Shown here piece after piece: positions 16,004 to 64,000 of a stretch of DNA of 64,000 nt; positions within the stretch are counted from its first letter, which is position 1; each line of letters begins with the position of its first letter. Origin of the DNA: Candidatus Babeliales bacterium (GTDB lineage: Bacteria; Babelota; Babeliae; Babelales; JACPOV01); NCBI GenBank assembly GCA_050250855.1, contig JBFWNW010000001.1:412266-476265 (forward strand), read 5' to 3'. The notes beneath the pieces were generated by a model, which ran no database searches, was not told the DNA's origin, and saw only the letters and a list, made by a program, of their open reading frames with translations. Both the position numbers and the translations under genes were made by a program.

Positions 16004-16950
16004 ACTCCTTAAAAGTAGGTCGTTATAAGGTAGCTATTACTCACCCTGAGCGTACACTTTTTCCAAAAAGTAAAATAACAAAAGAGGATTTAATTGAGTA
16101 CTATAACGATATTGCTTCTTATATGGTACCGTACCTTAAAGATAGACCCTTGACTATGCACCGTTATCCCGAGGGAATTACTCAAGAAGGATTTTACCAA
16201 AAGGATATGCCGGATTATTTCCCTGATTTTATTAAAGGAAAAACAATCCCTAAAAAAGAAGGTGGCAGCACCACCTACGTGGTCTGCAATAATGCAGCAA
16301 CGCTTGTATACTTAGCAAACCAGGCGTGCATTACACCCCACGTATGGTTAAGTAAGATCGATAAACTAAAATACCCCGACATGCTTATTTTTGATATGGA
16401 CCCACCATCAACAACCAAGAAAAGTTTTAACCTTGTACGGCACGCGGCTCTTTCGCTCAAAAAAATTCTTGAAGATATTGGTTTGGTTCCTTTTGTAAAA
16501 ACGACAGGATCTCGGGGCTTACATGTTGTTGTGCCCATAAAAAGAACGGCCACCTTTGATGCCGTACGTACCTGCGCACAAAAAATTGCGCAGATCTTAA
16601 TTGATAATGACCCCAAACATTTTACGATGGAAATACGTAAAGAAAAAAGAGGCAATAAAGTATTTATTGATACGCTACGCAACGCGTACGCGCAAACGGC
16701 CGTTGCTCCTTATGCGGTGCGCGCTAAAGAAAAGGCGCCCGTGGCAACCCCTATTTTTTGGGATGAAGTTGAAGATGCAACCCTTACTTCACAGCGCTAT
16801 AACATAGATAATATTTTTAACTATCTTAAAAAACATAAAGATCCTTGGAAGAATTTCTTTAAAAGTGCGCGGGATATAAAGAGTGCTTGTAAGAAATTAA
16901 AACGTTCGTATGGTTTCCAGCCTTCGTCAAGACTTCGGCGGACAGGCTAA
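16000..16950 (+). CDS. LigD polymerase/primase domain protein (stand-alone)
   Basis: RYPEG, FYQK, FDMDP, KTTGSRGLHV, APYAVRA. Confidence 0.92.
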   Translation: MNSLKVGRYKVAITHPERTLFPKSKITKEDLIEYYNDIASYMVPYLKDRPLTMHRYPEGITQEGFYQKDMPDYFPDFIKGKTIPKKEGGSTTYVVCNNAATLVYLANQACITPHVWLSKIDKLKYPDMLIFDMDPPSTTKKSFNLVRHAALSLKKILEDIGLVPFVKTTGSRGLHVVVPIKRTATFDAVRTCAQKIAQILIDNDPKHFTMEIRKEKRGNKVFIDTLRNAYAQTAVAPYAVRAKEKAPVATPIFWDEVEDATLTSQRYNIDNIFNYLKKHKDPWKNFFKSARDIKSACKKLKRSYGFQPSSRLRRTG

Positions 16951-17033
16951 TCAGCTCAAATATCATTAAAATTTATAAATACCGTTATGGTTCGAGACGC
17001 AAACTAAACAAGTTTGCTCCTCACCATGAACGG
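16903..17033. repeat. palindromic REP-like elements overlapping the 3' end of the LigD-Pol gene
   Basis: CCAGCCTTCGTCAAGACTTCGGCGGACAGGCT, and TGGTTCGAGACGCAAACT...AGTTTGCTCCTCACCATGAACGG. Confidence 0.8.
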
Positions 17034-17061
17034 TATTTTAGTTGAATTTATAATGGATCCT

Positions 17062-18174
17062 TTAAAACCTCCTATTGTCAGCAACGCAGTTCATAACAAG
17101 CCCGACCATGCAAAGGCCACAAATAAGAGCAGAGTTACCATAGCTGACAAAAGGAAGCCCTATTCCTTTGGTAGGAGCAAGGCCGGTTGTTACCGCTAAA
17201 TTAATAACAGCCTGCAAACTTGTTAAAATAACAAATCCCAATACAACCAATACAGAAAAAAGATCTTTAAGTTGCCAAGCAATGCGCATGCCAACATAAA
17301 GAAATACTACATATAACGCAATAAGTAGTGTTGCGCCAATAAAACCTGTTTCTTCAGCAATAATAGAAAAAATAAAATCAGTATGCTGCATAGGTAAATA
17401 AAAGAATTTTTGTTTTGAATGAGAAACTCCGGTACCCCAAAAGCTGCCAGAACCAATAGCAATTAATGATTGTATAATTTGAAACCCGGCCCCTTGCGGA
17501 TCATTCCAAGGATTTAGAAAAATAGCAATACGTTTAAGACGATAAGGATATTTAAAAATTAATAATAGAATAACAGGAATTGCTATACCAAGTGTGCCAA
17601 AAAAAAGATACGAACTAAAATGTATAACAAAAAAGAGCATAAATGAGGTAGAGGCGATAGTAACCGCCATGCCAAAGTCTGGCTGCGCAAGTAGTATTAA
17701 ACATGGTGCTCCTACTATTATTAAAAAAGGAAAAAAACCAGAAAAAAATGAACCAAGTTTTCCCTCTTTTTTACTCAAAAAATAGGCAAGGTATATAATA
17801 AGAAAAATTCTAAGCAGCTCGCTTGGCTGGAACGATAATCCCGGTAAAGAAAGCCAGCGGTTTGATCCATGAATGCGTAATGAAAGTCCTGGAACAAACG
17901 TAAGCATTGTTGCCACTAAGGAACTTAAAAAAAGATACGGGCTTGCATTTTTTATCAGCTCAAGAGGAACTATGCGAAAAAGTAAAAGGCCGATAAGTCC
18001 TAAGGACAAACCTATAAGTTGCTTTTTTACAAAATAAAAGCTTGATCCTAACCTTTCAAAAGCAAAAACAGAGCTTGAGGAATAAATAAAAAGTAAGCCA
18101 ATGACAATAAGAGCAGCAATGCTACTTAAAAATATATGAAGATCTGCCTGTAACTTTTTTTGACTTTGTATCAT
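17062..18174 (-). CDS. ftsW: SEDS-family peptidoglycan glycosyltransferase FtsW
   Basis: RW...FQPSE, QPDFG, GFQIIQS, HTDFIFSIIAEE, PTKGIGLPFVSYG. Confidence 0.92.
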   Translation of the reverse strand: MIQSQKKLQADLHIFLSSIAALIVIGLLFIYSSSSVFAFERLGSSFYFVKKQLIGLSLGLIGLLLFRIVPLELIKNASPYLFLSSLVATMLTFVPGLSLRIHGSNRWLSLPGLSFQPSELLRIFLIIYLAYFLSKKEGKLGSFFSGFFPFLIIVGAPCLILLAQPDFGMAVTIASTSFMLFFVIHFSSYLFFGTLGIAIPVILLLIFKYPYRLKRIAIFLNPWNDPQGAGFQIIQSLIAIGSGSFWGTGVSHSKQKFFYLPMQHTDFIFSIIAEETGFIGATLLIALYVVFLYVGMRIAWQLKDLFSVLVVLGFVILTSLQAVINLAVTTGLAPTKGIGLPFVSYGNSALICGLCMVGLVMNCVADNRRF

Positions 18175-18227: not shown

Positions 18228-19268
18228 TTATGGTTGGCATTGAGCAAGAATGGCATCACCCAACATGATCTTTTCCGGATTATACGGCAACCCGTACTTT
18301 TTATAAAACGCATGAACTACTGATTCATAAAATAATGCATCGTATTCATTATCGTTCATATAGTGAGGATGACGTGAATGTTTGAGCTCTAGAATATATA
18401 GATGAGGATGGCCTGCTTTTTTAAGCTCATGATACAGATTCCAGGTGCATACGGCAGGAACTATTTTATCAATCTTTGAAGTAATAAGTAAAAGAGGTAC
18501 ATCATGAGGGAACTGCTCAACAACTTTTATCGGTTGAATACCATCAAGGTTATGATTTGGATAGATACAAGAAAAAAGTTTTTGTGCCGCATACTGTGCG
18601 TATGAAGATGATGCATATGAACCCAATTTACTTTTTAGGATTGATACTGTTTGGTCAAAGCAACCTTCAAGAATAACCGCTTTAACCGTTTTTATTTCTT
18701 TTTTGAGGTATTCGGTTGCCATAAAATTAAAAATGGTTGCAGCACCACGTGAAGCACCGTAAAGAACCATGGCGTTATCATGTTTAGCTTGCGCGTCGTA
18801 TGTTTGTGATAAACAGTCAATATCAGCTTCTTGCGCTAATGAAAGCGCTTTGCGATTAATAGAAGGATTTTTTACGCATTCAGTTGAAGATGCTTTTTGA
18901 ATAAAAGTGTTTTCATACGAATCTTCAAGCAGGCGGCGTATTTGTGCAATGCCCGTATAGAGCTGATTAAACATATAATGAGGACATGCAATATGCGCCC
19001 CAAAAGAGAAGCTATTGGTTGAATCTAGATTAATTTCAGGGAAATTGATCGCCGTGGCATTACTGCCGATAACATTAATATGTTTGCCCACGTAGACACG
19101 TTGGCCCGTTGAGGCGTCATAGGAATTGCAATATTTTGCTATTTGCCGCTCAGTTGCATGAATGCCGGGAGCAAAAAGGTACGTGGTCTGTTTGCCATTC
19201 GGATGCACCCAGGTTTCTGAAAAGCAGTTAAAGCAGGAAAGAAGGAGCAATAAAAGTATATGGTACAT
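18228..19268 (-). CDS. exported alpha/beta hydrolase
   Basis: Signal peptide; YGASRG, DKIVP, HSRH. Confidence 0.7.
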   Translation of the reverse strand: MYHILLLLLLSCFNCFSETWVHPNGKQTTYLFAPGIHATERQIAKYCNSYDASTGQRVYVGKHINVIGSNATAINFPEINLDSTNSFSFGAHIACPHYMFNQLYTGIAQIRRLLEDSYENTFIQKASSTECVKNPSINRKALSLAQEADIDCLSQTYDAQAKHDNAMVLYGASRGAATIFNFMATEYLKKEIKTVKAVILEGCFDQTVSILKSKLGSYASSSYAQYAAQKLFSCIYPNHNLDGIQPIKVVEQFPHDVPLLLITSKIDKIVPAVCTWNLYHELKKAGHPHLYILELKHSRHPHYMNDNEYDALFYESVVHAFYKKYGLPYNPEKIMLGDAILAQCQP

Positions 19269-19386
19269 AAAAACCTACTATTAATGTTATTATATACCTC
19301 TACTGTAACGCTATTTGGCCTTATGAGCAAGAGGGTCAAGCTTTCTATATTCTGCTTAGTGTTTTTTAATATGTATTATTTAAAAT

Positions 19387-19532
19387 CCCGTTCGTGGTGA
19401 GGGTTTTTCGAAGAAAAACGTCTCGAACCATTCGAACTCAGAATTAAAATATAATTTTTTATCTTTTTTAATAGGCTCCCGTTATGGTTCGAGACGCAAA
19501 CTAAAATAAGTTTGCTCCTCACCACGAACGGA
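19387..19532. repeat. palindromic REP-like element pair (uninterrupted form)
   Basis: CCCGTTCGTGGTGAG...CGTCTCGAACCA, AT-rich spacer, then TGGTTCGAGACG...CTCCTCACCACGAACGG. Confidence 0.85.
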
Positions 19533-19568
19533 ATAGAGAGCTTTGAATACTTTCTTTTAGAGAGAATG

Positions 19569-21572
19569 TTACTTAACTTTACTACCTATCTCCTTACACA
19601 AATTATCAAAGGTAGTACTTGAAGGAGCCGGTACATTGAGGATATCTGCCAGGGTTGGCGTAATCTGTTGGACCCAGATTTTTTGGCATACTTCCTTCTT
19701 TTCATAGCTATCCGGTTGATACAGCATTAAGGGGACATGGGTATCATAATGATATGGCGATTTGTGGCTGGTGCCGCGCATATTTTTACCCACCAAGGTG
19801 TATGGATATACTTGAATAATCAGGTCGCCGCTGCGGCCTGGGAAATATTGATTTTGGAAATGGTTCTTGAACTGATTGTCATCGTAATAACGTTTTTGTA
19901 ATTGCCGCGGCGTCCAGACTTGTTTTATGCCCGGTTGTTTTTTAAGCTCTCGTTTAAGCGTGTTAATAACTGCTTTTTGTTGTTTTGGTGGTAATGTATC
20001 AAAAACAGCATGATTCAGATAAAAATCGGGCGTATCAATATACCGTATTATATTTTTAAGATTAAATTTTTTCTCAAGCGTGGCATTGATTTCCTTTTTT
20101 AAAATGTTTTTATCAATGCGCTGTGCCGATGAATAACCTTTTTTTTGTACATTTTCAATTAAAGGCATACTCGCATGATCTGCTGTCAGAAGCCATACTA
20201 TATTTTCAGGATCTGCTTTTGTATGCATAAATGCCATAAATTCTGCAATTTCTTTATCAAGGTGATATAAAATATCTATATATTCTATGCTTTGTGCTGT
20301 AAAATGGTGCCCAATTTTATCGGGCGTACTGACGCTCAAAAACATAACAAAAAGATTGTCATCAGGGTTATACTCATTATCAATACACGTTTTGGCAAGT
20401 TCAAAAAGTAATGCTTGTGCGTGCGGCGTTTTTAAATAGTTTTTAGGAGCAACTACGGTTTGGTGTAAAGCTGGTTGTCTGCTGAATGCATATACGTCAT
20501 GAGCTGCATCATACGCTACATCTGATTTATCATAGGCAAGATGCCAGAAATTTTTTTCTGGCGCTTGATGATTTTTATTAAACTCTTTGAGCCAAGCAGG
20601 CAACGTGTCAAAATAGGCTTTGCTTGAACTGAATTGCATTGCTTTTTCATCAAACCAAACAGCTTTTCCTGCTTTGCCAGCGCACAGTGCCGCTGCACGA
20701 TCTTTATGCGAAAAACAAAATACTTTATTTTTCTTGTTTGCTGTTGCTTGCAGCATTATTTGATCTGCAAGCGTATCAACCATAAGATAGTGTGATGAAA
20801 CACCAAATGTATAAACACCATCAGGAGAAAAAACGGCTGAGCATGGGTTATTATCTTGAGCTGCATTAATTTCATTGCCATTATAATCGATCCAACCATT
20901 ATCAACAATGCCGTGATTGCGTGCATGTGTTCCTGTTGCAAGGCCGGCATGATTGGTTGCTGTTGCTGGCATTGACGAAGGCCAGTAAGCATTATTAAAG
21001 ATAATGGCATTATCAAAAAATGTTTTAAAGCCGCCCGTAAAGTATGGTTTTAAGTTGTGTAATGTTTGTTGCCCGAGTTGATCAATGACTAAAATAATGG
21101 CAACCTTGGGTGTAGTTTTTTTAGTATAATGATGAGTCCCATAAGTATCGGTAAGATTTGCATGCTCTAAATTAGCATATTCAAAATTTGTGTTTTTAAG
21201 ATTTGCTCTTTCAAAAATAGCATATTTTAACGAGGCTCCCTTGAAATTCGCATGTTCCAGAGAAGCTAATAAGAAATTAGCTCCTTCTAAATTTGAACAT
21301 TCAAAATTTGCAGAGGCTAGATTAGTATTGCCAAAGTTTGCATTTTTCAGATTGCTATAAGAAAAGTTTGTTCCCTCTAAATTTGAGCTTTCAAGAAGGA
21401 TAGGGATATTTTTTTTCTGTAATTCGTTTACAACGCTTCTTAAATCACAAAAACTTAGATCGCCAGCAATGCATTCTCCGGTTTTTTTAAATATTTCTAA
21501 ATGATCAGAATTATAGGCTATTATTAAATTACAGGAGAAGAAAAAAAATAAAAAAAACTTTATTTTATTCAT
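19569..21572 (-). CDS. pentapeptide-repeat / alkaline phosphatase-superfamily (PafA-like) fusion
   Basis: Signal peptide; (A/T)N(F/L)xx pentapeptide repeats; VIDQL, TATNHAGLATG, KDRAA, DKIGH, TADH. Confidence 0.85.
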   Translation of the reverse strand: MNKIKFFLFFFFSCNLIIAYNSDHLEIFKKTGECIAGDLSFCDLRSVVNELQKKNIPILLESSNLEGTNFSYSNLKNANFGNTNLASANFECSNLEGANFLLASLEHANFKGASLKYAIFERANLKNTNFEYANLEHANLTDTYGTHHYTKKTTPKVAIILVIDQLGQQTLHNLKPYFTGGFKTFFDNAIIFNNAYWPSSMPATATNHAGLATGTHARNHGIVDNGWIDYNGNEINAAQDNNPCSAVFSPDGVYTFGVSSHYLMVDTLADQIMLQATANKKNKVFCFSHKDRAAALCAGKAGKAVWFDEKAMQFSSSKAYFDTLPAWLKEFNKNHQAPEKNFWHLAYDKSDVAYDAAHDVYAFSRQPALHQTVVAPKNYLKTPHAQALLFELAKTCIDNEYNPDDNLFVMFLSVSTPDKIGHHFTAQSIEYIDILYHLDKEIAEFMAFMHTKADPENIVWLLTADHASMPLIENVQKKGYSSAQRIDKNILKKEINATLEKKFNLKNIIRYIDTPDFYLNHAVFDTLPPKQQKAVINTLKRELKKQPGIKQVWTPRQLQKRYYDDNQFKNHFQNQYFPGRSGDLIIQVYPYTLVGKNMRGTSHKSPYHYDTHVPLMLYQPDSYEKKEVCQKIWVQQITPTLADILNVPAPSSTTFDNLCKEIGSKVK

Positions 21573-24777: not shown

Positions 24778-25317
24778 TTAACTTTTTAAATGCCAAGATA
24801 AGCAGACACGGTCTTTGCATTCACCATTTTCATCCAAAGGCCAAAATTCTTGGTTTGGTTCTTGTTTAAAAAGTTCCTGATAGAGATTTATTAAATTTTC
24901 TTTTTGCTCGGGAGTCGCTGGCTCAGGTTTTTCAGCTGGCACATGATGCATGAATTTCCCCAATAATTTTTTGCAGAAATTTTTATATTCATGTGTAAAT
25001 AATATAAATGTATGCCAATAATCATCAAGCTCTTTATGAAACATAGGTAGTGGCATAGTTGATACAGAACCTGCTATTGCAAATTTTTTAAATTCTAGAT
25101 CAAGAATCTTTAAACGTTCATTAGATACTTCTTCATGTTCTTTTTTATAACGATTCATGACAAATGTTGTATCGTAAGCAAATATTTTTTCTCTAGATTC
25201 TATTGATATGGTACTAGGCGCAGACTTTGGTACCCCACATGTCATAACAGAAAAATTATTGCCGTTATTATTTAAGAAATTAAGAAGTAAAAACACAATA
25301 GATAATTTTTTTTTCAT
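24778..25317 (-). CDS. secreted protein with GRDP-like (D-x-x-WH-x-x-IL) domain
   Basis: EFKKF...LDDYWHTFILFTHEYKNFCKKLLGKFMHHVP. Confidence 0.65.
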   Translation of the reverse strand: MKKKLSIVFLLLNFLNNNGNNFSVMTCGVPKSAPSTISIESREKIFAYDTTFVMNRYKKEHEEVSNERLKILDLEFKKFAIAGSVSTMPLPMFHKELDDYWHTFILFTHEYKNFCKKLLGKFMHHVPAEKPEPATPEQKENLINLYQELFKQEPNQEFWPLDENGECKDRVCLSWHLKS

Positions 25318-25460
25318 GATAAAGCCTTTGCTGTTTAATTAAATAGCAGCAACACCAATCGTTACTGCTATTATTACTTTTACTGTTAATAGTTTAATAT
25401 TTAGTGAGCTAAATATCCATTGAATAGAAGGCGCAATACCATTGTTTCAAGCTTGAAATA

Positions 25461-26063
25461 TTAAAAATCACAACTTTCACTTTCACAGTTGAAGTTACAA
25501 GCTCTACCACAAATGGAACCACACCAGCTTGTACAGTCGCTAAATTTCTCATTTTTACTCAAGGGCCAAAATTCTTGGTTTGGTTCATGATTAAAAAGCT
25601 TCTGATATAAATTTATTAAATTTTCTTTTTGCTCAATGCTTACTGGTTCTGGATTTTCAGCAGGTACATGATGCATAAATTTCCCCAATAATTTTTTGCA
25701 GAAATTTTTATATTCATGCGTAAATAATATAAATGTATGCCAATAATCATCAAGATCTTTGTTGCACATAGGTAATGGCATAGTTGATACAGAACCTGCT
25801 ATTGCAAATTTCTTAAACTCTAGATCAAGGATTTGTAAGCGATCATCAGATACGTCTTTATGTTCTTTTCTATAGCGATTCATGACAAATGTTGTATCGT
25901 AAGCAAATATTTGTTCTCTAGATTCTATTGATAGGTTACTAGGTTCAGATTTTGGGACGCCACATGTCATAACCGGTGCATAGCAATCCATGCTTGAAGA
26001 ATTATTACCGTTATTATTTAAGAAATTAAGAAGTAAAAACACAATAGATAATTTTTTTTTCAT
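25461..26063 (-). CDS. paralog of the 24778 gene with a Cys-rich tail
   Basis: Same domain; tail CTSWCGSICGRACNFNCESESC. Confidence 0.65.
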   Translation of the reverse strand: MKKKLSIVFLLLNFLNNNGNNSSSMDCYAPVMTCGVPKSEPSNLSIESREQIFAYDTTFVMNRYRKEHKDVSDDRLQILDLEFKKFAIAGSVSTMPLPMCNKDLDDYWHTFILFTHEYKNFCKKLLGKFMHHVPAENPEPVSIEQKENLINLYQKLFNHEPNQEFWPLSKNEKFSDCTSWCGSICGRACNFNCESESCDF

Positions 26064-56367: not shown

Positions 56368-57036
56368 ATGTTAAAAAAATATATTCTTATTATACTTCTG
56401 CCACTTTGTATGCATGCAAAAAGCATGCCGGTCAAAAATAGTAATGCTACGATACGCAAAATATATACCTGTAAAAACAAAGCGTTTTCTATTGGTGCCG
56501 ATGAAATTGCAACCATTGAAGAAAGTGGCGGTAATTCTACGTATGGAGAAATTACTGACAAAGGCGTTCAAATGCTCATTCATGAACTCAATCCTAAAAA
56601 ATCTGATGTGTTCTATGATCTTGGCTCAGGTGGCGGCCGCATGGTTTTAAAAATGTATCTTGATTCTCCCATACATAGAGCTGTTGGTATTGAGCTTTCT
56701 CCAACACGTCATGCTATAGCTCTTAAAGCGCAGGAAAAACTCAAAGAACTTGGCCAAGAAATCTCTGGTAAAATTCTTGAATTTCGTAATGCAGATATAC
56801 AAAAAGCACGCATACAGGATGCAACTATTATTTATGTAGCATCAACATGCTTTTCTGATGAATTTATGCAAAAGCTTACGACTAAACTTGCTGCGCTCAA
56901 AAAAGGACTTAACGTATTAACGCTGCGCCAATTACCAAAACATGAAGCATTTACACTTGTCAAAGAACTACGCGTTCCTATGACCTGGGGGGCGGATGTT
57001 TCTGTGTATTGGTATACATTAACGAACGGAATTTAA
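56368..57036 (+). CDS. secreted DOT1-like SAM-dependent methyltransferase
   Basis: Signal peptide; TYGEI...DVFYDLGSGGG...AVGIE; CFS. Confidence 0.75.
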   Translation: MLKKYILIILLPLCMHAKSMPVKNSNATIRKIYTCKNKAFSIGADEIATIEESGGNSTYGEITDKGVQMLIHELNPKKSDVFYDLGSGGGRMVLKMYLDSPIHRAVGIELSPTRHAIALKAQEKLKELGQEISGKILEFRNADIQKARIQDATIIYVASTCFSDEFMQKLTTKLAALKKGLNVLTLRQLPKHEAFTLVKELRVPMTWGADVSVYWYTLTNGI

Positions 57037-57102: not shown

Positions 57103-58011
57103 CTACGCCCTTGGGTGTTTTTTATCATACACCTTGCGCAGATGATCCGTTTCTACGTGCGTATAAATCTGCACTGTTGCTATGGTTTCATGCCCCAGCA
57201 AAAGTTGTAGTGAACGCAGGTTAGCACCTTTTTTGAGTAAATGTGTTGCCAGTGAATGGCGCAATTTGTGCGGCGAAATATTTTTAATACCAGCTTTTGC
57301 GCATAATGCTTTGAGTATTAACCAGAATGATTGCCGAGAAATTGGCTTTACTTTTTTGCCATACAAAACAGGAAATAAATAATCAATATGGGCTTTTTTT
57401 CTAATTAATGTTTGATGCGTTTTTTCTACATACTGTTGCAATAAAATATGCATAGGTTCTGGTAAAGGAACTATGCGCTCTTTTCCGCCTTTGCCAAAAA
57501 CGGTAATAAAACCCGTATCGGTGTGCAAGTCAGAGAGCTTCAAGCGCGTCAGCTCAGAAACACGCATGCCAGAACTATACATGAGGCACAACATCACCCG
57601 ATTGCGTATACTTTTTTGTGTATCGCCAACCAAAGCCGCTTTAATAAGGGCTTCAACCTCTGCTTCGCTCAAATACGTTGGCAACCGCCTAGGAATTTTA
57701 GGAAAGGCAATATCAACCGTATAGTTTTCCCACCCCAACTGCTCTCCTGCCCAGGCATAAAAGGTCTTGAGGGCAGATAGCTTGCGCGAGCGGCTCCGTG
57801 CCGTTAAAGAAAGAGAGGCTAAATGCTTAAGGTATTCCTTAATAACCCCCTGATTAATGGTCTGAAAAGTAAGGCCTTTTTGCTCAAGAAACGTAACAAA
57901 TTGCGTAAGATCTGTTTTATAGGCAGCATAGGTGTTAGAGGCAACCCGCTTTTCTGCCAATAAGTAAGCTTCAAATCTTGTTAAAATAGTAGACATACTC
58001 ATACACTGCAT
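57103..58011 (-). CDS. xerD: tyrosine recombinase, XerD/XerC type
   Basis: GMRVSE, GKGGKER, SPHKLRHSLATHLL, LLGH, TVQIYTHV, HPRA end. Confidence 0.85.
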   Translation of the reverse strand: MQCMSMSTILTRFEAYLLAEKRVASNTYAAYKTDLTQFVTFLEQKGLTFQTINQGVIKEYLKHLASLSLTARSRSRKLSALKTFYAWAGEQLGWENYTVDIAFPKIPRRLPTYLSEAEVEALIKAALVGDTQKSIRNRVMLCLMYSSGMRVSELTRLKLSDLHTDTGFITVFGKGGKERIVPLPEPMHILLQQYVEKTHQTLIRKKAHIDYLFPVLYGKKVKPISRQSFWLILKALCAKAGIKNISPHKLRHSLATHLLKKGANLRSLQLLLGHETIATVQIYTHVETDHLRKVYDKKHPRA

Positions 58012-58105: not shown

Positions 58106-58133
58106 TTGACAAATTGAATAAAGACTGTATAAT
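58106..58133 (+). promoter_or_regulatory. sigma70 promoter upstream of the effector array
   Basis: TTGACA-N16-TATAAT. Confidence 0.7.
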
Positions 58134-58170
58134 AGTGTTTAGATATGATTATAATAAAAATGGAGACTTT

Positions 58171-58731
58171 ATGACTTCTACTTCTTTAAAAACAATATTT
58201 ACAATGCTCATCCTTGGTGCTACATCTGTGCATACCATGGAAAATAATAGATTTTTTCCTTTTGTTGTACAAAAAAAGGAAAAGCTAGAAATGCGAGTAT
58301 TGAGCCCTGAAGAGGCTCGAGAGGATGTACAAAGATGGTCAGATTTATCTGAAAAATCTAAACAGCAGATTATTGACGCTTTTAGAGAATCTGGCGATGA
58401 AAATGAAGAGCTATATTATTTTTGCCTCTTGACCTGGGAGAAAATTCTGACGTGGCCTATCTTAAATTACGAAGATAAAATGCTGGTGATTAACCAAATT
58501 GCTATAGGAACAAATTTCAGCAACCAAATTATAATTAACAACAAACTTATTAATGCTGCTGATTATTTTAAAAAGCTCGAAGAAAAATATGCACTCAAAC
58601 TTTTAAATGAAATGAGTGATAATTGGTCGCAGCTAGAAAAAAAAGAGAAAAAAAGAGTGCTCATGTTATCACAACAATATGAAGATAATGATCATTATCA
58701 AGAACGCATAAAAAGACTTAATAGTAAATAA
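58171..58731 (+). CDS. secreted hypothetical protein
   Basis: RBS GGAG; signal ..SVHT-MEN. Confidence 0.6.
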   Translation: MTSTSLKTIFTMLILGATSVHTMENNRFFPFVVQKKEKLEMRVLSPEEAREDVQRWSDLSEKSKQQIIDAFRESGDENEELYYFCLLTWEKILTWPILNYEDKMLVINQIAIGTNFSNQIIINNKLINAADYFKKLEEKYALKLLNEMSDNWSQLEKKEKKRVLMLSQQYEDNDHYQERIKRLNSK

Positions 58732-58735
58732 TTAA

Positions 58736-60175
58736 ATGGAGATTACTATGTTACGTAAACTATTACTTTTCACCTTACTTTTAGGAGCTATAGCTCCTGC
58801 AGCTGCAGCTTCAATCAAACTTGTATCAAACGATGATCAAGAGTTTGAGATAGAAAAAGCTGCTGCTGAACAATCAGAAACTATTAAAAATATGTTAGCC
58901 GATCTAGAAGATCAGCAAGATCAACCAATTAATTTACCTGCCATAGATGGAAAAACATTGGGACTTATTGTAGAGTTTCTGAACAACAACAAAGATTTGA
59001 GTAATCTAAATCTTTCTGATCTTATAAACCTGGTTAATGCTGCAAATGGTCTTGATATACCTAAGCTTCTTGATGCAGCTGCTAGGCTGTTAGCAGAACA
59101 TATTCAAACCAATAAAGCAAAAATTAACATTCAAGAGCTTAAAGAAAAGCTTCCCCTTGATATGCAAAAGCTCGTTGAAGCAAAGATACCCTTTAAGTTA
59201 TTACAAACTCTTACGGGGCATACGGACTCGGTCCTTTCAGTAGCATGGTCACCAGATGGCACCAAGCTTGCATCAGGTTCATGGGACGAAACCATAAAAA
59301 TATGGGATGTAAAAACTGGCACCGAGCTTCAAACTCTTACAGGGCATACACGCTGGGTCTTTTCAGTTGCATGGTCACCAGATGGCACCAAGCTTGCATC
59401 AGGCTCATATGACAAAACCATAAAAATATGGGATGTAAAAACTGGCACAGAGCTCCAAACTCTTACGGGGCATACGGACTCGGTCCTTTCAGTTGCATGG
59501 TCACCAGATGGCACCAAGGTTGCATCAGGTTCAACTGAAAAAACCATAAAAATATGGGATGCACAAACTGGCACCGAGCTTCAAACTCTTACGGGGCATA
59601 CACACTGGGTCCTTTCAGTTGCATGGTCACCAGATTGCACCAAGCTTGCATCAGCTTCATGGGACAAGACAATAAAAATATGGGATGTAAAAACTGGCAC
59701 AGAGCTCCAAACTCTTACGGGGCATACACACTGGGTCGTTTCAGTTGCATGGTCACCAGATGGCACCAAGCTTGCATCAGGTTCAGCTGACAAAACCATA
59801 AAAATATGGGATGTAAAAACTGGCACAGAGCTCCAAACTCTCACGGGGCATACGGACTCGGTCCTTTTAGTTGCATGGTCACCAGATGGCACCAAGCTTG
59901 CATCAGGCTCAGATGACAAGACCATAAAAATATGGGATGTAAAAACTGGCGCCGAACTTCAAACTCTTACAGGCCATACAGACCTGGTCCATTCAGCAGT
60001 ATGGTCACCAGATGGTACAAAACTTGCTTCAGCTTCACATGACAAGACCATACAAATATGGAACCAAGAAAGTATTTTTTCTCACGATGAAAATAGGAAG
60101 CAACTAGCATTGACACCATCAACACAGCTTTCTGCAGCGGCAATTGTCGCCAGCCTGCTATTTTTTAATAAATAA
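58736..60175 (+). CDS. SKP1-like domain / WD40 fusion protein (7 repeats), secreted
   Basis: [27 protein letters not shown]...[15 protein letters not shown] resembles SKP1; WD40 repeats [24 protein letters not shown]; likely true start 58748. Confidence 0.9.
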   Translation: MEITMLRKLLLFTLLLGAIAPAAAASIKLVSNDDQEFEIEKAAAEQSETIKNMLADLEDQQDQPINLPAIDGKTLGLIVEFLNNNKDLSNLNLSDLINLVNAANGLDIPKLLDAAARLLAEHIQTNKAKINIQELKEKLPLDMQKLVEAKIPFKLLQTLTGHTDSVLSVAWSPDGTKLASGSWDETIKIWDVKTGTELQTLTGHTRWVFSVAWSPDGTKLASGSYDKTIKIWDVKTGTELQTLTGHTDSVLSVAWSPDGTKVASGSTEKTIKIWDAQTGTELQTLTGHTHWVLSVAWSPDCTKLASASWDKTIKIWDVKTGTELQTLTGHTHWVVSVAWSPDGTKLASGSADKTIKIWDVKTGTELQTLTGHTDSVLLVAWSPDGTKLASGSDDKTIKIWDVKTGAELQTLTGHTDLVHSAVWSPDGTKLASASHDKTIQIWNQESIFSHDENRKQLALTPSTQLSAAAIVASLLFFNK

Positions 60176-61546
60176 ATGGAGATTACTATGTTACGTAAAC
60201 TATTACTTTTCACCTTACTTTTAGGAGCTATAGCTCCTGCCGCTGCCGCTTCAATCAAACTTGTATCAAACGATGATCAAGAGTTTGAGATAGAAAAAGC
60301 TGCTGCTGAACAATCAGAAACTATTAAAAATATGTTAGCCGATCTAGAAGATCAGCAAGATCAGCCAATTAATTTACCTGCCATCGATGGAAAAACATTG
60401 GACCTGGTTGTAAAATTTCTGAAAAACACCAACAAAGGTTTGAGCAATCTAAATCTTTCTGATCTTATAAACCTGGTTAATGCTGCAAATGGTCTTGATA
60501 TACCTAAGCTCCTTGATGCAGCAACTACACTGTTGGCAAATTATATTCACAACAACAAAGCCAACATTCCAGAGGAAAATCTTCCCGTTGATATGCAAAA
60601 GCTCATTGAAGCAAAGATGCCATTTAATAATGAACCATTTAAAAATCTTACGGGGCATACAGGCGAGAAGGTCAGATCAGTTGCATGGTCGCCAAATGGC
60701 ACCAAGGTTGCATCAGGTTCAGATGATAAAACCATAAAAATATGGAATGCACAAACTGGCACAATAATCCAAACTCTTACGGGGCATAAAGACTCGGTCC
60801 GGTCAGTAGCATGGTCACCAGATGGCACCAAGGTTGCATCAGGTTCAGATGATAAAACCATAAAAATATGGAATGCACAAACTGGCACAATAATCCAAAC
60901 TCTTACGAGGCATACACACTGGGTCAATTCAGTAGCATGGTCACCAGATGGCACCAAGCTTGCATCAGGTTCAGAGGACAACACCATAAAAATATGGAAT
61001 GCACAAACTGGCACAATAATCCAAACTCTTACGGAGCATACACACTGGGTCAATTCAGTAGCATGGTCACCAGATGGCACCAAGCTTGCATCAGGTTCAG
61101 AGGACAACACCATAAAAATATGGGATGTAAAAACTGGCACCGAGCTTCAAACTCTTACGGGGTATACTGACTCGGTCCTTTCAGTAGCATGGTCACCAGA
61201 TGGCACCAAGCTTGCATCAGGCTCATATGACAAAACCATAAAAATATGGGATGCACAAACTGGCACAGAGCTTCAAACTCTTACAAGCCATACAAACGCG
61301 ATCTGGTCAGTAGCATGGTCACCAGATGGCACCAAGCTTGCATCAGGCTCAGCTGACAACACCATAGAAATATGGAAACGAGAAAGTATTTTTTCTCACG
61401 ATGAAAACAATGAAAAATCAGAAAACACAGAACCCAGTGGGCAATTGGTAACAGCAGAACCAACTGATTGGTTGTTTTACACAGGGGCATTAGCAGGATT
61501 AGCTGGACTAGGTTTTGTTGCTTACAAACTATTTTTTAATAAATAA
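60176..61546 (+). CDS. SKP1-like / WD40 fusion protein (6 repeats) with C-terminal transmembrane tail
   Basis: Same architecture; tail WLFYTGALAGLAGLGFVAYKLFFNK. Confidence 0.9.
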   Translation: MEITMLRKLLLFTLLLGAIAPAAAASIKLVSNDDQEFEIEKAAAEQSETIKNMLADLEDQQDQPINLPAIDGKTLDLVVKFLKNTNKGLSNLNLSDLINLVNAANGLDIPKLLDAATTLLANYIHNNKANIPEENLPVDMQKLIEAKMPFNNEPFKNLTGHTGEKVRSVAWSPNGTKVASGSDDKTIKIWNAQTGTIIQTLTGHKDSVRSVAWSPDGTKVASGSDDKTIKIWNAQTGTIIQTLTRHTHWVNSVAWSPDGTKLASGSEDNTIKIWNAQTGTIIQTLTEHTHWVNSVAWSPDGTKLASGSEDNTIKIWDVKTGTELQTLTGYTDSVLSVAWSPDGTKLASGSYDKTIKIWDAQTGTELQTLTSHTNAIWSVAWSPDGTKLASGSADNTIEIWKRESIFSHDENNEKSENTEPSGQLVTAEPTDWLFYTGALAGLAGLGFVAYKLFFNK

Positions 61547-62983
61547 ATGGAGATTACTATGATACGTAAACTATTACTTTTCACCTTACTTTTAGGAGCT
61601 ATAGCTCCTGCCGCTGCCGCTTCAATCAAACTTGTATCAAACGATGATCAAGAGTTTGAGATAGAAAAAGCTGCTGCTGAACAATCAGAAACTATTAAAA
61701 ATATGTTAGCCGATCTAGAAGATCAGCAAGATCAGCCAATTAATTTACCTGCCATCGATGGAAAAACATTAGGACTTGTTGTAAAATTTCTGAACAACAA
61801 CAAAGATTTGAGTAATCTAAATCTTTCTGATCTTATAAACCTGGTTAATGCTGCAAATGGTCTTGATATACCTAAGCTTCTTGATGCAGCTGCTAGGCTG
61901 TTAGCAGAACATATTCAAACCAATAAAGCAAAAATTAACATTCAAGAGCTTAAAGAAAAACTTCCCTTTGATATGCAAAGGCTCGTTGAAGCAAAAATGC
62001 TACTATTTAAAACTCTTACGGGACATACAGAAAATGTCCATTCAATAGCATGGTCACCAGATGGCACCAAGCTTGCATCAGGTTCATGGGAGCTAAAAAT
62101 ATGGAATGCACAAACTGGCACCGAGCTTCAAACTCTTACAGGGCATAGAAGCCGCATCTGGTCAGTAGCATGGTCACCAGATGGCACCAAGCTTGCATCA
62201 GGTTCACAGGACAAAACCATAAAAATATGGGATGCGCAAACTGGCACAGAGCTCCAAACTCTTACGGGGCATACAGACTCGGTCCGGTCAGTAGCATGGT
62301 CACCAGATGGCACTAAGCTTGCATCAGGTTCATTAGACAACACCTACACCATAAAAATATGGGATGCAAAAACTGGCACCGAGCTTCAAACTCTTACGGG
62401 GCATACAAACTGGGTCCGTTCAGTAGCGTGGTCACCAGATGGCACCAAGCTTGCATCAGGCTCAGATGACAAGACAATAAAAATATGGGATGCGCAAACT
62501 GGCACCGAGCTTCAAACTCTTACGGGGCATACAGGCGAGAAGGTCATTTCAGTTGCATGGTCACCTGATGGCACCAAGCTTGCATCAGGTTTATCGGACA
62601 AGACAATAAAAATATGGGATGTAAAAACTGGCACCGAGCTCCAAACTCTTACGGGGCATACACGCTGTGTCCTTTCAGTAGCATGGTCACCAGATGGCAC
62701 CAAGCTTGCATCAGGTTCACAGGACAAAACCATAAAAATATGGGATGTAAAAACTGGCGCCGAACTTCAAACTCTTACAGGCCATACAGACCTGGTCCAT
62801 TCAGTAGTATGGTCACCAGATGGCACCAAGCTTGCATCAGGTTCATGGGACGAAACCATAAAAATATGGAAAAGAGAAAGTATTTTTTCTCACGATAAAA
62901 ATAGGAAGCAACTAGCATTGACACCATCAACACAGCTTTCTGCAGCGGCAATTGTCGCCAGCCTGCTATTTTTTAATAAATAA
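61547..62983 (+). CDS. SKP1-like / WD40 fusion protein (7 repeats)
   Basis: Same architecture as the 58736 gene. Confidence 0.9.
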   Translation: MEITMIRKLLLFTLLLGAIAPAAAASIKLVSNDDQEFEIEKAAAEQSETIKNMLADLEDQQDQPINLPAIDGKTLGLVVKFLNNNKDLSNLNLSDLINLVNAANGLDIPKLLDAAARLLAEHIQTNKAKINIQELKEKLPFDMQRLVEAKMLLFKTLTGHTENVHSIAWSPDGTKLASGSWELKIWNAQTGTELQTLTGHRSRIWSVAWSPDGTKLASGSQDKTIKIWDAQTGTELQTLTGHTDSVRSVAWSPDGTKLASGSLDNTYTIKIWDAKTGTELQTLTGHTNWVRSVAWSPDGTKLASGSDDKTIKIWDAQTGTELQTLTGHTGEKVISVAWSPDGTKLASGLSDKTIKIWDVKTGTELQTLTGHTRCVLSVAWSPDGTKLASGSQDKTIKIWDVKTGAELQTLTGHTDLVHSVVWSPDGTKLASGSWDETIKIWKRESIFSHDKNRKQLALTPSTQLSAAAIVASLLFFNK

Positions 62984-64000
62984 ATGGAGATTACTATGGT
63001 ACGCAAACTATTTTTGTTAACACTTATTTTAGGAGCAATAGCTCCTGCCGCTGCAGCTTCAATCAAACTTGTATCAAACGATGATCAAGAGTTTGAGATA
63101 GAAAAAGCTGCTGCTGAACAATCAGAAACTATTAAAAATATGTTAGCCGATCTAGAAGATCAGCAAGATCAACCAATTAATTTACCTGCCATTGATGGAA
63201 AAACATTGGGACTTATTGTAGAGTTTCTACAGAAAAAGGATATTGAGGTTAAAAAATTAGATCTTGAAGCACTTATTAATCTAGTCAATGCTGCAAATGG
63301 TCTTGATATACCTAAGCTCCTTGATGCTGCGGCTACCGTTTTAGCAGAACATATTCAAACCAATAAAGCAAAAATTAACATTCAAGAGCTTAAAGAAAAG
63401 CTTCCCCTTGATATGCAAAAGCTCGTTGAAGCAAAAATGCCATTTAAGTTATTACAAACTCTTACGGGGCATACAGACTCGGTCTTTTCAGTAGCGTGGT
63501 CACCTGATGGCACCAAGCTTGCATCAGGTTCATGGGACAAGACAATAAAAATATGGAATGCACAAACTGGCACCGAGCTCCAAACTCTTACGGGGCATAC
63601 AGGCTTTGTCCATTCAGTAGCATGGTCACCAGATGGCACCAAGCTTGCATCAGGCTCATATGACAAAACCATAAAAATATGGGATGCACAAACTGGCACA
63701 GAACTCCAAACTCTTACGGGGCATACAACCTACATCCAGTCAGTAGCATGGTCACCAGATGGCACCAAGCTTGCATCAGGCTCATATGACAAAACCATAA
63801 AAATATGGGATGCACAAACTGGCACAGAACTCCAAACTCTTACAGGGCATACAGACTGGGTCATTTCAGTAGCATGGTCACCAGATGGCACTAAGCTCGC
63901 ATCAGCTGCAGATGACAACACCATAAAAATATGGGATGCACAAACTGGCACAGAGCTCCAAACTCTTACAGGGCATTCAAACTCTGTTCATTCAGTAGTA
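62984..64000 (+). CDS. SKP1-like / WD40 fusion protein, 3'-truncated by the window edge
   Basis: ATGGAGATTACTATGGTACGCAAAC start, SKP1-like domain, at least four full WD40 repeats; open to the end of the window. Confidence 0.88.

Follow-up and report, generated by a model that had tools for sequence, protein, structure and literature searches.

The last 5.3 kb (positions 58736-64000) of a 64,000-nt stretch of the genome of a Candidatus Babeliales bacterium (GenBank assembly GCA_050250855.1, contig JBFWNW010000001.1, positions 412,266 to 476,265; hereafter the window) contain four head-to-tail open reading frames (ORFs) on the + strand, genes A-D, of 479, 456, 478, and more than 339 aa, respectively. 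The four products share a common plan: a predicted signal peptide, a Skp1-like BTB/POZ domain (the head), 6-7 WD40 blades of 126 bp each, and a hydrophobic C-terminal tail. The blades are homogenised at the DNA level within and between the genes, and four codons per blade, predicted to lie on the propeller's top face, are hypervariable. With a little better than even credence, the cluster is read here as a tandem set of Sec-exported, host-directed effector candidates, in which the Skp1-like head would attach to host cullin-1 and the top face would bring in a protein of the host, as suggested by the domain plan and by analogy. Cultured Babeliales (Dependentiae) are obligate intracellular parasites of protists. 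The features of the cluster are as follows.

58736-60175, + strand: gene A, 479 aa (WD40 PF00400 E 1.7e-97, 7 stretches; Skp1_POZ E 8.5e-18)
58811-59185, + strand: Skp1-like BTB/POZ domain of gene A, residues ~26-150 (PF03931, 64.7 bits against a cut-off of 21.9)
59201-60064, + strand: gene A array of seven 126-bp WD40 units (Tandem Repeats Finder, TRF, and unit extraction)
60065-60175, + strand: C-terminal tail of gene A, a hydrophobic helix and then LFFNK
60176-61546, + strand: gene B, 456 aa, same plan as gene A; 6 blades, array 60638-61375
61547-62983, + strand: gene C, 478 aa, same plan as gene A; 7 blades, array 62006-62869
62984-64000, + strand: gene D; array from 63452, 4 blades and 15 codons before the contig end

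For the analysis of variation, 27 blades of A-D (three of them from contig C3, described below) were placed in the register LQTLTGH... and codon-aligned over 42 codons. Positions 9, 10, 12, and 28 each hold 8-10 residue types, with entropies of 2.6-2.95 bits; the remaining 38 positions reach at most 1.16 bits. These 4/42 codons hold 48% of the nonsynonymous but 12% of the synonymous pairwise differences, which bears out, codon by codon, the claim of a preliminary description of this DNA that variation concentrates at binding-face positions. The motifs that it listed after GH and at S-G-S-x-D are all present, and its repeat counts of 7, 6, and 7 hold for A, B, and C. The proportion of nonsynonymous differences (pN) is 0.57 at the four codons vs. 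0.07 elsewhere, and mean nucleotide identity between blades (codons 1-35) is 86%; it is 91% with the four codons excluded and 47% among those codons alone. When counted as minimum changes, 33 nonsynonymous and 4 synonymous changes fall at the four codons vs. 33 and 27 elsewhere (Fisher p=0.0006). The nonsynonymous divergence (dN) at the four codons is 1.06, and its ratio to the synonymous divergence (dS) of the blade core (codons 1-35 minus the four variable codons) is 5.15 (bootstrap over blades, 3.6-7.5). The set of top-face residues differs in each paralogue.

According to Wu et al., the top-face hotspots of WD40 propellers include R1, which follows the first hydrophobic residue of the bulge (V/L/I)-R1-R2-(V/L/I) with which strand a begins; R1-2, two residues before R1; and D-1, the residue preceding the tetrad Asp (PMC3419727). 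In the present blades V-x-S-V marks the b-a bulge, so that R1 corresponds to position 12, R1-2 to position 10, R1-3 to position 9, and D-1 to position 28. In the structural model, strand a runs from V166, with positions 9-10 in the d-a loop, and strand b runs to S182, with position 28 in the b-c turn. By the published rule, rather than by a distance calculation, the four variable codons are assigned to the predicted top face; the variable sites of the d-a loop and b-c turn coincide with the published hotspots R1-2, R1, and D-1 (PMC3419727), again as anticipated. The four positions of highest entropy are R1-3, R1-2, R1, and D-1 also in three further blade sets from four other Babeliales genomes, namely G025 (32 blades), G130 (39 blades), and G227 together with G193 (14 blades). 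This recurrence indicates that the pattern is not post-hoc.

The homogenisation of the arrays is evident from synonymous sites. In the blade core, the proportion of synonymous differences (pS) is 0.175 within a gene of A-D, 0.180 between genes A-D, and 0.198 between A-D and two further paralogues, E and F, which lie in tandem on contig C2 (~65% identity) and bring the Skp1-WD40 genes of this genome to six. On the other hand, pS of the N-terminal domains of ABCD vs. EF is 0.47-0.56. As a control, blade pS between this genome and G001, the closest genome and one placed in the same genus, is 0.55-0.68, so nothing intrinsic holds the synonymous sites of the blades constant. The low pS of the blades against the high pS of the heads implies either that homogenisation of the arrays within this genome, between genes as well as between the two loci, came after the divergence of the heads, or that arrays were recently exchanged. 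At the DNA level, TRF reports 126-bp arrays at 59204-60061 (6.8 copies, 88% matches), 60642-61377 (5.8 copies, 89%), 62010-62869 (6.8 copies, 83%), and 63455-63998 (4.3 copies, 89%), and gene C carries in-frame indels in three blades (-2, +2, and +1 codons). The preliminary description had called the 126-bp units nearly identical within and between genes; the synonymous contrast upholds the homogenisation, but "nearly identical" overstates a mean nucleotide identity of 86%. Long antisense ORFs (81-197 aa) run through the arrays with a 126-bp period on the - strand (59329-63699), and are most simply by-products of the repeats.

Recombination among blades, which had also been proposed, is supported by the pairwise homoplasy index (PHI) test (p=0.0005) and by 329/703 incompatible pairs of informative sites. 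One and the same multi-nucleotide loop haplotype is found with different turns (TDSVL with W, T, or D; RSRIW with Q or Y; SNSVH with D or W; TDLVH with H or W), and the converse, one turn haplotype with different loop haplotypes, is also seen. From these sequences, the breakpoints must fall inside the nearly invariant 15-residue blade core. Mutagenesis by a diversity-generating retroelement was considered and rejected, as there is no reverse transcriptase in the assembled 95% of the genome: PF00078 gave 0 matches in this 95%-complete assembly, and a control search found it in 3/14 known genomes. A recombinase gene lies upstream of the cluster.

57103-58011, - strand: XerD-like tyrosine recombinase (306 bits on NCBIfam PRK00283, cut-off 279)

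Its XerD equivalog score is 310 against a cut-off of 329.6. It is one of two PF00589 (tyrosine recombinase) genes in the genome, and these two are most simply the housekeeping XerC/XerD pair. A role for Xer in the arrays is thus unsupported, in agreement with the earlier remark that this gene has no shown role.

The WD40 blades are recognised by PF00400 with E-values of 1.7e-97, 2.5e-85, 5.5e-92, and 6.9e-62 and with 7, 6, 7, and 4 stretches in A, B, C, and D, respectively, and the AlphaFold2 (AF2) model of the gene A propeller (residues 151-440) has a predicted local distance difference test (pLDDT) score of 91-98. Mean pairwise blade identity is 79% at the amino acid level and 86% at the nucleotide level (codons 1-35), the former above the criterion for WRAP-like propellers (median >60%) given in PMC9218822. 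The same source describes new propellers as continually amplified from single blades in many lineages (PMC9218822). In a Foldseek search the 7-bladed WRAP-T (7big_A) matched with a target-normalised template modelling (TM) score of 0.99 and 55% identity. The nearest solved relatives are WRAP-T designs, Nostoc 2ymu, and Thermomonospora curvata PkwA (5yzv), at 52-56% identity; among these, single 7-bladed chains have target-normalised TM scores of 0.96-0.99, and the two-propeller Nostoc 2ymu reaches 0.48 at 56% identity. Eukaryotic WDR5 is 38-39% identical to the propeller. Highly repetitive WD40 proteins of prokaryotes have reportedly been studied systematically by Hu and colleagues in 2017. 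Weaker WD40 matches lie elsewhere on contig C1, outside the window, in very long ORFs of 869-1536 aa (C1:2883-3743, 16497-17267, 19205-20176, 25181-25495, and 155683-156438), which add to the large repeat proteins of the genome.

The head is Skp1-like by several measures. Skp1_POZ (PF03931) matches residues 26-86 of A-D with 62-65 bits against a cut-off of 21.9, while the BTB family PF00651 gives 15.8-21.1 bits against a cut-off of 20.5, so that gene D alone is above it and Skp1_POZ scores far higher. A profile of the N-terminal region searched against the Protein Data Bank (PDB) matched Skp1 chains (best E 7.5e-19, Dictyostelium Skp1A) over Skp1 residues ~3-132; Elongin C appeared in the same search with only E 8e-6. 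The AF2 model of the head, from an 88-sequence alignment, has a pLDDT of 88, and every Foldseek match listed for it (ranks to 50) is a Skp1 chain, e.g., 6v88 with a root-mean-square deviation (rmsd) of 2.5 over 116 columns. The AnkB-Skp1 structure 5k35 is among these listed matches. Two short helices follow H6 in the models; once they are included, the rmsd to Skp1 is ~8 Å, a poor alignment. At E<=1, residues 1-155 of A-D gave no family besides Skp1_POZ and the weak BTB match, and a word-indexed homology search with residues 1-155 of gene A returned gene D of the window as its sole match. Since a bacterial-type amplified propeller is joined to a eukaryote-like Skp1 head, the protein looks like a chimera.

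The possibility of a cryptic F-box was also considered, either in an LPxD/E-hydrophobic stretch after the Skp1-like core or in an LSxEQLLL stretch after the propeller of relatives, and was rejected on the Pfam results: no F-box was found in residues 1-155 of A-D (E<=1) or in the C-terminal 126 residues of one G001 relative (E<=10). The conserved helical stretch L-S/T-x-E-Q-L-L-L follows the propeller in L015, L016, L018, L019, L020, L024, L027, P0113, and P0151, and is not present in A-F. The one copy scanned (L027) matched no Pfam family and no F-box.

Read directly, the N-terminus of every copy consists of M(L/I/V)RK, a hydrophobic run, and AAAAS, a segment that would serve as a Sec signal peptide. 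In cultured Dependentiae, signal peptides are found on 44% of all coding sequences and on 78% of ankyrin proteins, which are read as effectors (PMC6561590; PMC4378268), and Babela has been noted for its ubiquitin-system genes (PMC4776705). At the other end, A-D finish in a hydrophobic helix followed by FFNK; E and F have no hydrophobic tail. The tail type of gene A is common to A and C, and a longer hydrophobic variant is found in B and D. In gene A the helix (461-477) is predicted at low pLDDT. Among the 1193 genome ORFs whose ends were scanned, LFFNK terminates A, B, and C only; the gene D tail on contig C3 also carries LFFNK, but lacks a Met and hence lies outside the scan. The looser pattern F[FL][NK]K / FF.K fits six of the 1193 ORFs; of the three outside the cluster, two are small and bear a signal (ends FFTK and FFGK), and the third has no signal (end FLKK). 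The scan rules out LFFNK as a genome-wide sorting signal.

Relatives of the cluster are spread through the phylum. G001 has three scattered genes of the same architecture, with heads 35-42% identical to those described here, blades that are internally similar per gene, and no hydrophobic C-tail. PF03931 occurs in 34/261 genomes of the phylum (24/145 genera), often in tandem clusters, and in 0/14 control genomes; in the genomes searched, the Skp1-head family is restricted to host-dependent bacteria. Blade similarity was computed on 31 loci from relatives. G130 has at least 6 genes with 7 blades and a median blade identity of 0.60-0.75, G025 has five tandem genes (0.50-0.84), and blade identity reaches 0.74 in G227 and 0.70 in G193; in other genomes the propellers are divergent (0.17-0.49) or WD40 is lacking. 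A profile search run exhaustively over 1.84 billion representatives yielded 2438 matches at E<=0.001. Judged by length, most of the best 150 of these 2438 resemble ordinary Skp1 proteins; further matches are signal-peptide proteins that combine a Skp1-like head with WD40, leucine-rich repeats (LRR), RCC1, Lcl_C, or more Skp1-like domains. These architectures point to a broad modular family in metagenomes. Heads fused to Lcl_C, RCC1, or LRR, or repeated two to three times, were seen in P0049, P0148, P0133, P0130, P0118, P0119, P0002, P0012, and L035 (G023).

The window is the end of contig C1 in a genome of 1.22 Mb that is 95% complete in 11 contigs. The last 127 nt of C1 are exactly the first 127 nt of contig C3 (window 63874-64000; C3:1-127), and the remainder of gene D lies at C3:2-595, with three further blades and a C-tail of the same kind; the two contigs are thus probably adjacent. 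The break lies within a 126-bp unit that is exactly duplicated and whose copy number is therefore uncertain; 7 is thus a minimum for the blades of gene D. On C3, gene D is followed by a convergent long ORF that, read by eye, appears to encode a prolyl-tRNA synthetase. Exact repeats inside the WD arrays reach 104 nt at most, less than the 127 nt by which the contigs overlap, but exact runs of up to 208, 173, and 143 nt are common to the N-terminal parts. Three runs of one landfill-metagenome study, which may be the source of the assembly, contain the stretch as Logan contigs, with a break at 58762. Over the array these contigs are pieces of 112-280 nt, many with 0 differences across the variable codons and none reported with joints or indels, and their loose ends appear to be the tail of paralogues E and F. 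In gene B, blades B3 and B4 (60910-61123) have the same variable residues (HWN/E) and share an 88-nt exact run. The six blades of gene B possibly include a collapsed seventh. The variability pattern is also found in other genomes, so it does not depend on this assembly alone.

The stop codons of the cluster genes directly precede ATGGAGATTACTATG. The true start of gene A is likely the second ATG (58748), which has GGAG 8 nt upstream; with the second ATG as start, the cluster genes are 12 nt apart. Gene A is preceded, at a distance of 4 nt, by a 205-aa ORF (58114-58731, +) in which a hydrophobic, signal-like run comes after an internal Met. This ORF matches nothing in NCBIfam and nothing above threshold in Pfam; co-transcription with the cluster is possible. 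A 222-aa protein (56368-57036, +) encoded two genes upstream of the cluster combines a signal-like N-terminus with a DOT1 histone-methyltransferase domain (PF08123, E 3e-18, 66.6 bits against 23); it is a further eukaryote-like enzyme, possibly directed at the host.

The following sequence of events is proposed. After export, the Skp1-like head would sit on the host cullin-1 scaffold in place of the pair of Skp1 and F-box protein, and the top face of the propeller would bind a host protein, which would then be ubiquitinated or sequestered. Unequal crossing-over or gene conversion keeps the 126-bp blades alike within genes, across A-D, and across the two loci. Four codons per blade (R1-3, R1-2, R1, and D-1), forming a putative top-face ring, remain diverse, presumably under selection, and each paralogue would thereby offer a different surface. 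Recombination in the invariant core reassorts the two variable halves of a blade. The modularity of the Skp1-like head would be as expected for a family of substrate receptors. A role as degradation adaptors, as put forward in the preliminary description, is suggested by the Skp1-like N-terminal domain and by analogy; its further idea, that repeat shuffling gives rise to new specificities, is a hypothesis.

Several observations weigh against host-directed effectors of this kind. Docking on a host cullin is a prediction from resemblance. PF01466, the C-terminal, F-box-binding domain of Skp1, was undetected in residues 1-155 of A-D (E<=1) and in residues 96-165 of A (E<=10), although the positive controls P0015 and P0018, proteins of ordinary Skp1 size, scored 88 and 80 bits. 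In A-D, Gly replaces the Tyr of the conserved AANYLDI motif, a residue in contact with Cul1; the Cul1 contacts of Skp1 include Asn108/Tyr109. By topology rules, a cleaved signal together with a C-terminal hydrophobic helix ending in K would give an inner-membrane anchor facing the periplasm, not the host cytosol. Taken on its own, the comparison internal to the four codons gives no significant omega>1 (33:4 vs. a neutral 5:1, binomial p=0.24), and the codon tests are tree-free, because recombination breaks the assumption of a tree. The array comes from a short-read metagenome and is broken inside gene D; its local sequence is corroborated, but its long-range order is not. No within-population variants were seen in the contigs of the three runs, and such contigs drop rare variants. 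Finally, the genome has six such genes only, for which the earlier term "library" is generous.

Some of these points would fit proteins that stay with the bacterium. With the signal cleaved and the tail as an anchor in the inner membrane or envelope, the ligands would be met in the periplasm, at the surface, or in vesicles, and the head would serve only in oligomerisation or as a scaffold, with no part for a host cullin. The hydrophobic helix and FFNK at the ends of A-D, the undetected F-box-binding domain, the Tyr-to-Gly change in AANYLDI, and the Pfam name of PF03931 (a tetramerisation domain) all agree with such a role, which is nevertheless unlikely: E, F, and the G001 genes have no hydrophobic tail, the head is far closer to Skp1 (E 7.5e-19) than to other BTB proteins, and within the phylum it is fused to many eukaryote-type interaction domains. 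Moreover, published accounts take the signal-bearing repeat proteins of Dependentiae to be host-directed (PMC6561590; PMC4378268). The proteins could also reach the host and act there as decoys or inhibitors, with the head titrating Cul1 or other Skp1 partners, or tethering targets without ubiquitination. The architecture would be the same as for substrate receptors, the undetected PF01466 region and altered AANYLDI could weaken the geometry of a Skp1-cullin-F-box (SCF) ligase, and P0002 and P0012 have 2-3 Skp1-like domains in tandem but lack a receptor domain. Yet a hypervariable, selected propeller face fits the recruitment of targets better than the titration of a scaffold, and a decoy function is likewise given little weight.

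The diversity itself might be explained by recent amplification without adaptive diversification, the blades being young copies and the four codons unconstrained surface positions. Propellers are continually amplified from single blades (PMC9218822), and the ratio of nonsynonymous to synonymous changes within the codons is not above neutral. However, the dN of the four codons (1.06) stands at five times dS in the core around them, the arrays of the two loci are as alike as blades within one gene while their heads are near synonymous saturation, the halves of blades have been reassorted, and the same top four positions recur in three further blade sets with a different consensus, all of which makes this explanation improbable. 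Highly unlikely is an artefact in which a short-read assembler threaded near-identical repeats of one or several strains into a mosaic. It is true that the contig, which overlaps C3 by 127 nt, breaks off in gene D where a 126-bp unit is exactly duplicated, that the N-terminal parts hold exact runs of 143-208 nt, and that the independent contigs span only 112-280 nt in the array. Nonetheless, exact repeats inside the arrays are at most 104 nt against the 127-nt overlap, all frames are open with no stops, many short public contigs show 0 differences across the variable codons, and the same architecture and variability are found in other genomes, including the single-contig genomes G025 and G130.

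The closest parallel is found in fungi. In the HNWD/HET-E proteins, four codons flanking conserved residues are diversified at the interaction surface and the repeats evolve in concert (PMC1805685), so that the parallel drawn in the preliminary description is well founded. As described there, the HNWD/NWD genes of Podospora anserina (het-e, het-d) likewise have 42-residue units that are alike in DNA and exchanged within and between paralogues, and HNWD codons 7, 9, 25, and 27 correspond to positions 10, 12, 28, and 30 of the present register (PMC1805685). Unlike in HNWD, D+1 varies only mildly in the present blades (1.16 bits), and the fourth place among the strongly variable codons is taken by R1-3. 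The partner domains also differ, a signal peptide and Skp1-like domain here and HET/NACHT there, as does the presumed purpose: attack on a host by a reduced intracellular bacterium in the one case, self/non-self recognition in the other. RIP (repeat-induced point mutation) is a fungal process and is not applicable here. The lack of a NACHT domain in residues 1-155 of A-D places the proteins outside the NLR family. Among bacteria, WRAP and highly repetitive propellers are described in STAND/NLR-like or kinase proteins of free-living species (PMC9218822), whereas the proteins of this cluster pair the propeller with a Skp1-like domain and carry an export signal.

In layout, the proteins resemble SCF receptors (Skp1 plus F-box/WD40 proteins such as beta-TrCP and Fbw7), which join a cullin-docking BTB-fold module to a propeller with top-face substrate binding, and also the BTB-Kelch adaptors of cullin-3-RING ligases (CRL3), which share the single-chain layout. 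In contrast to SCF receptors, no F-box or Skp1 C-terminal domain is detected here, the Skp1-like fold is covalently fused to the propeller, and cullin docking is putative. Protochlamydia PEX1 (BTB plus LRR) and Legionella AnkB (F-box) are similar in being expanded, often tandem, families of amoeba-associated bacteria in which a domain for docking on cullin-RING ligases (CRLs) is combined with a repeat domain (PMC4209131); they differ in having a BTB domain or an F-box where the present proteins have a Skp1-like head, and in export of the type III/IV rather than the Sec kind. For the PEX1 families, purifying selection was reported, without hypervariable positions in the repeats (PMC4209131).

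A secreted bacterial protein in which a Skp1-like head is fused directly to a homogenised propeller with hypervariable positions was not found in print, no search having been aimed at that combination, and the literature searches did not pair bacterial WD40 hypervariability with effectors. Among the matches listed for Skp1_POZ/PF03931 in the literature, from a search that covered few subscription journals, none concerned bacteria. What appears to be new is the combination of two known themes, the concerted evolution of WD40 repeats with a variable top face, familiar from NLR-like receptors of fungi and bacteria, and the hijacking of host cullin-RING ligases by eukaryote-like effectors. More tentatively, and with rather more doubt than confidence, the Dependentiae may possess an offensive counterpart of NLR-type diversification, in the form of undescribed single-chain SCF receptors with a Skp1-like head, an interaction domain, and no F-box, the interaction domain being a self-homogenising WD40 array in several Babeliales lineages.

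If this is true, recombination among blades and selection on a code of four residues per blade would rapidly yield new degraders of host proteins within a 1.2-Mb genome. If the head docks on host Cul1, bacterial substrate receptors would have a new, F-box-free route into SCF ligases, and the variable blades would record, in readable form and from the attacker's side, the course of an arms race. Protein designers may also take an interest in these near-symmetric propellers, which are natural and have a defined code of four positions. For the phylum, the family as a whole (34/261 genomes; WD40, LRR, RCC1, and Lcl_C partners) provides effector candidates for the poorly understood manipulation of hosts by Dependentiae.

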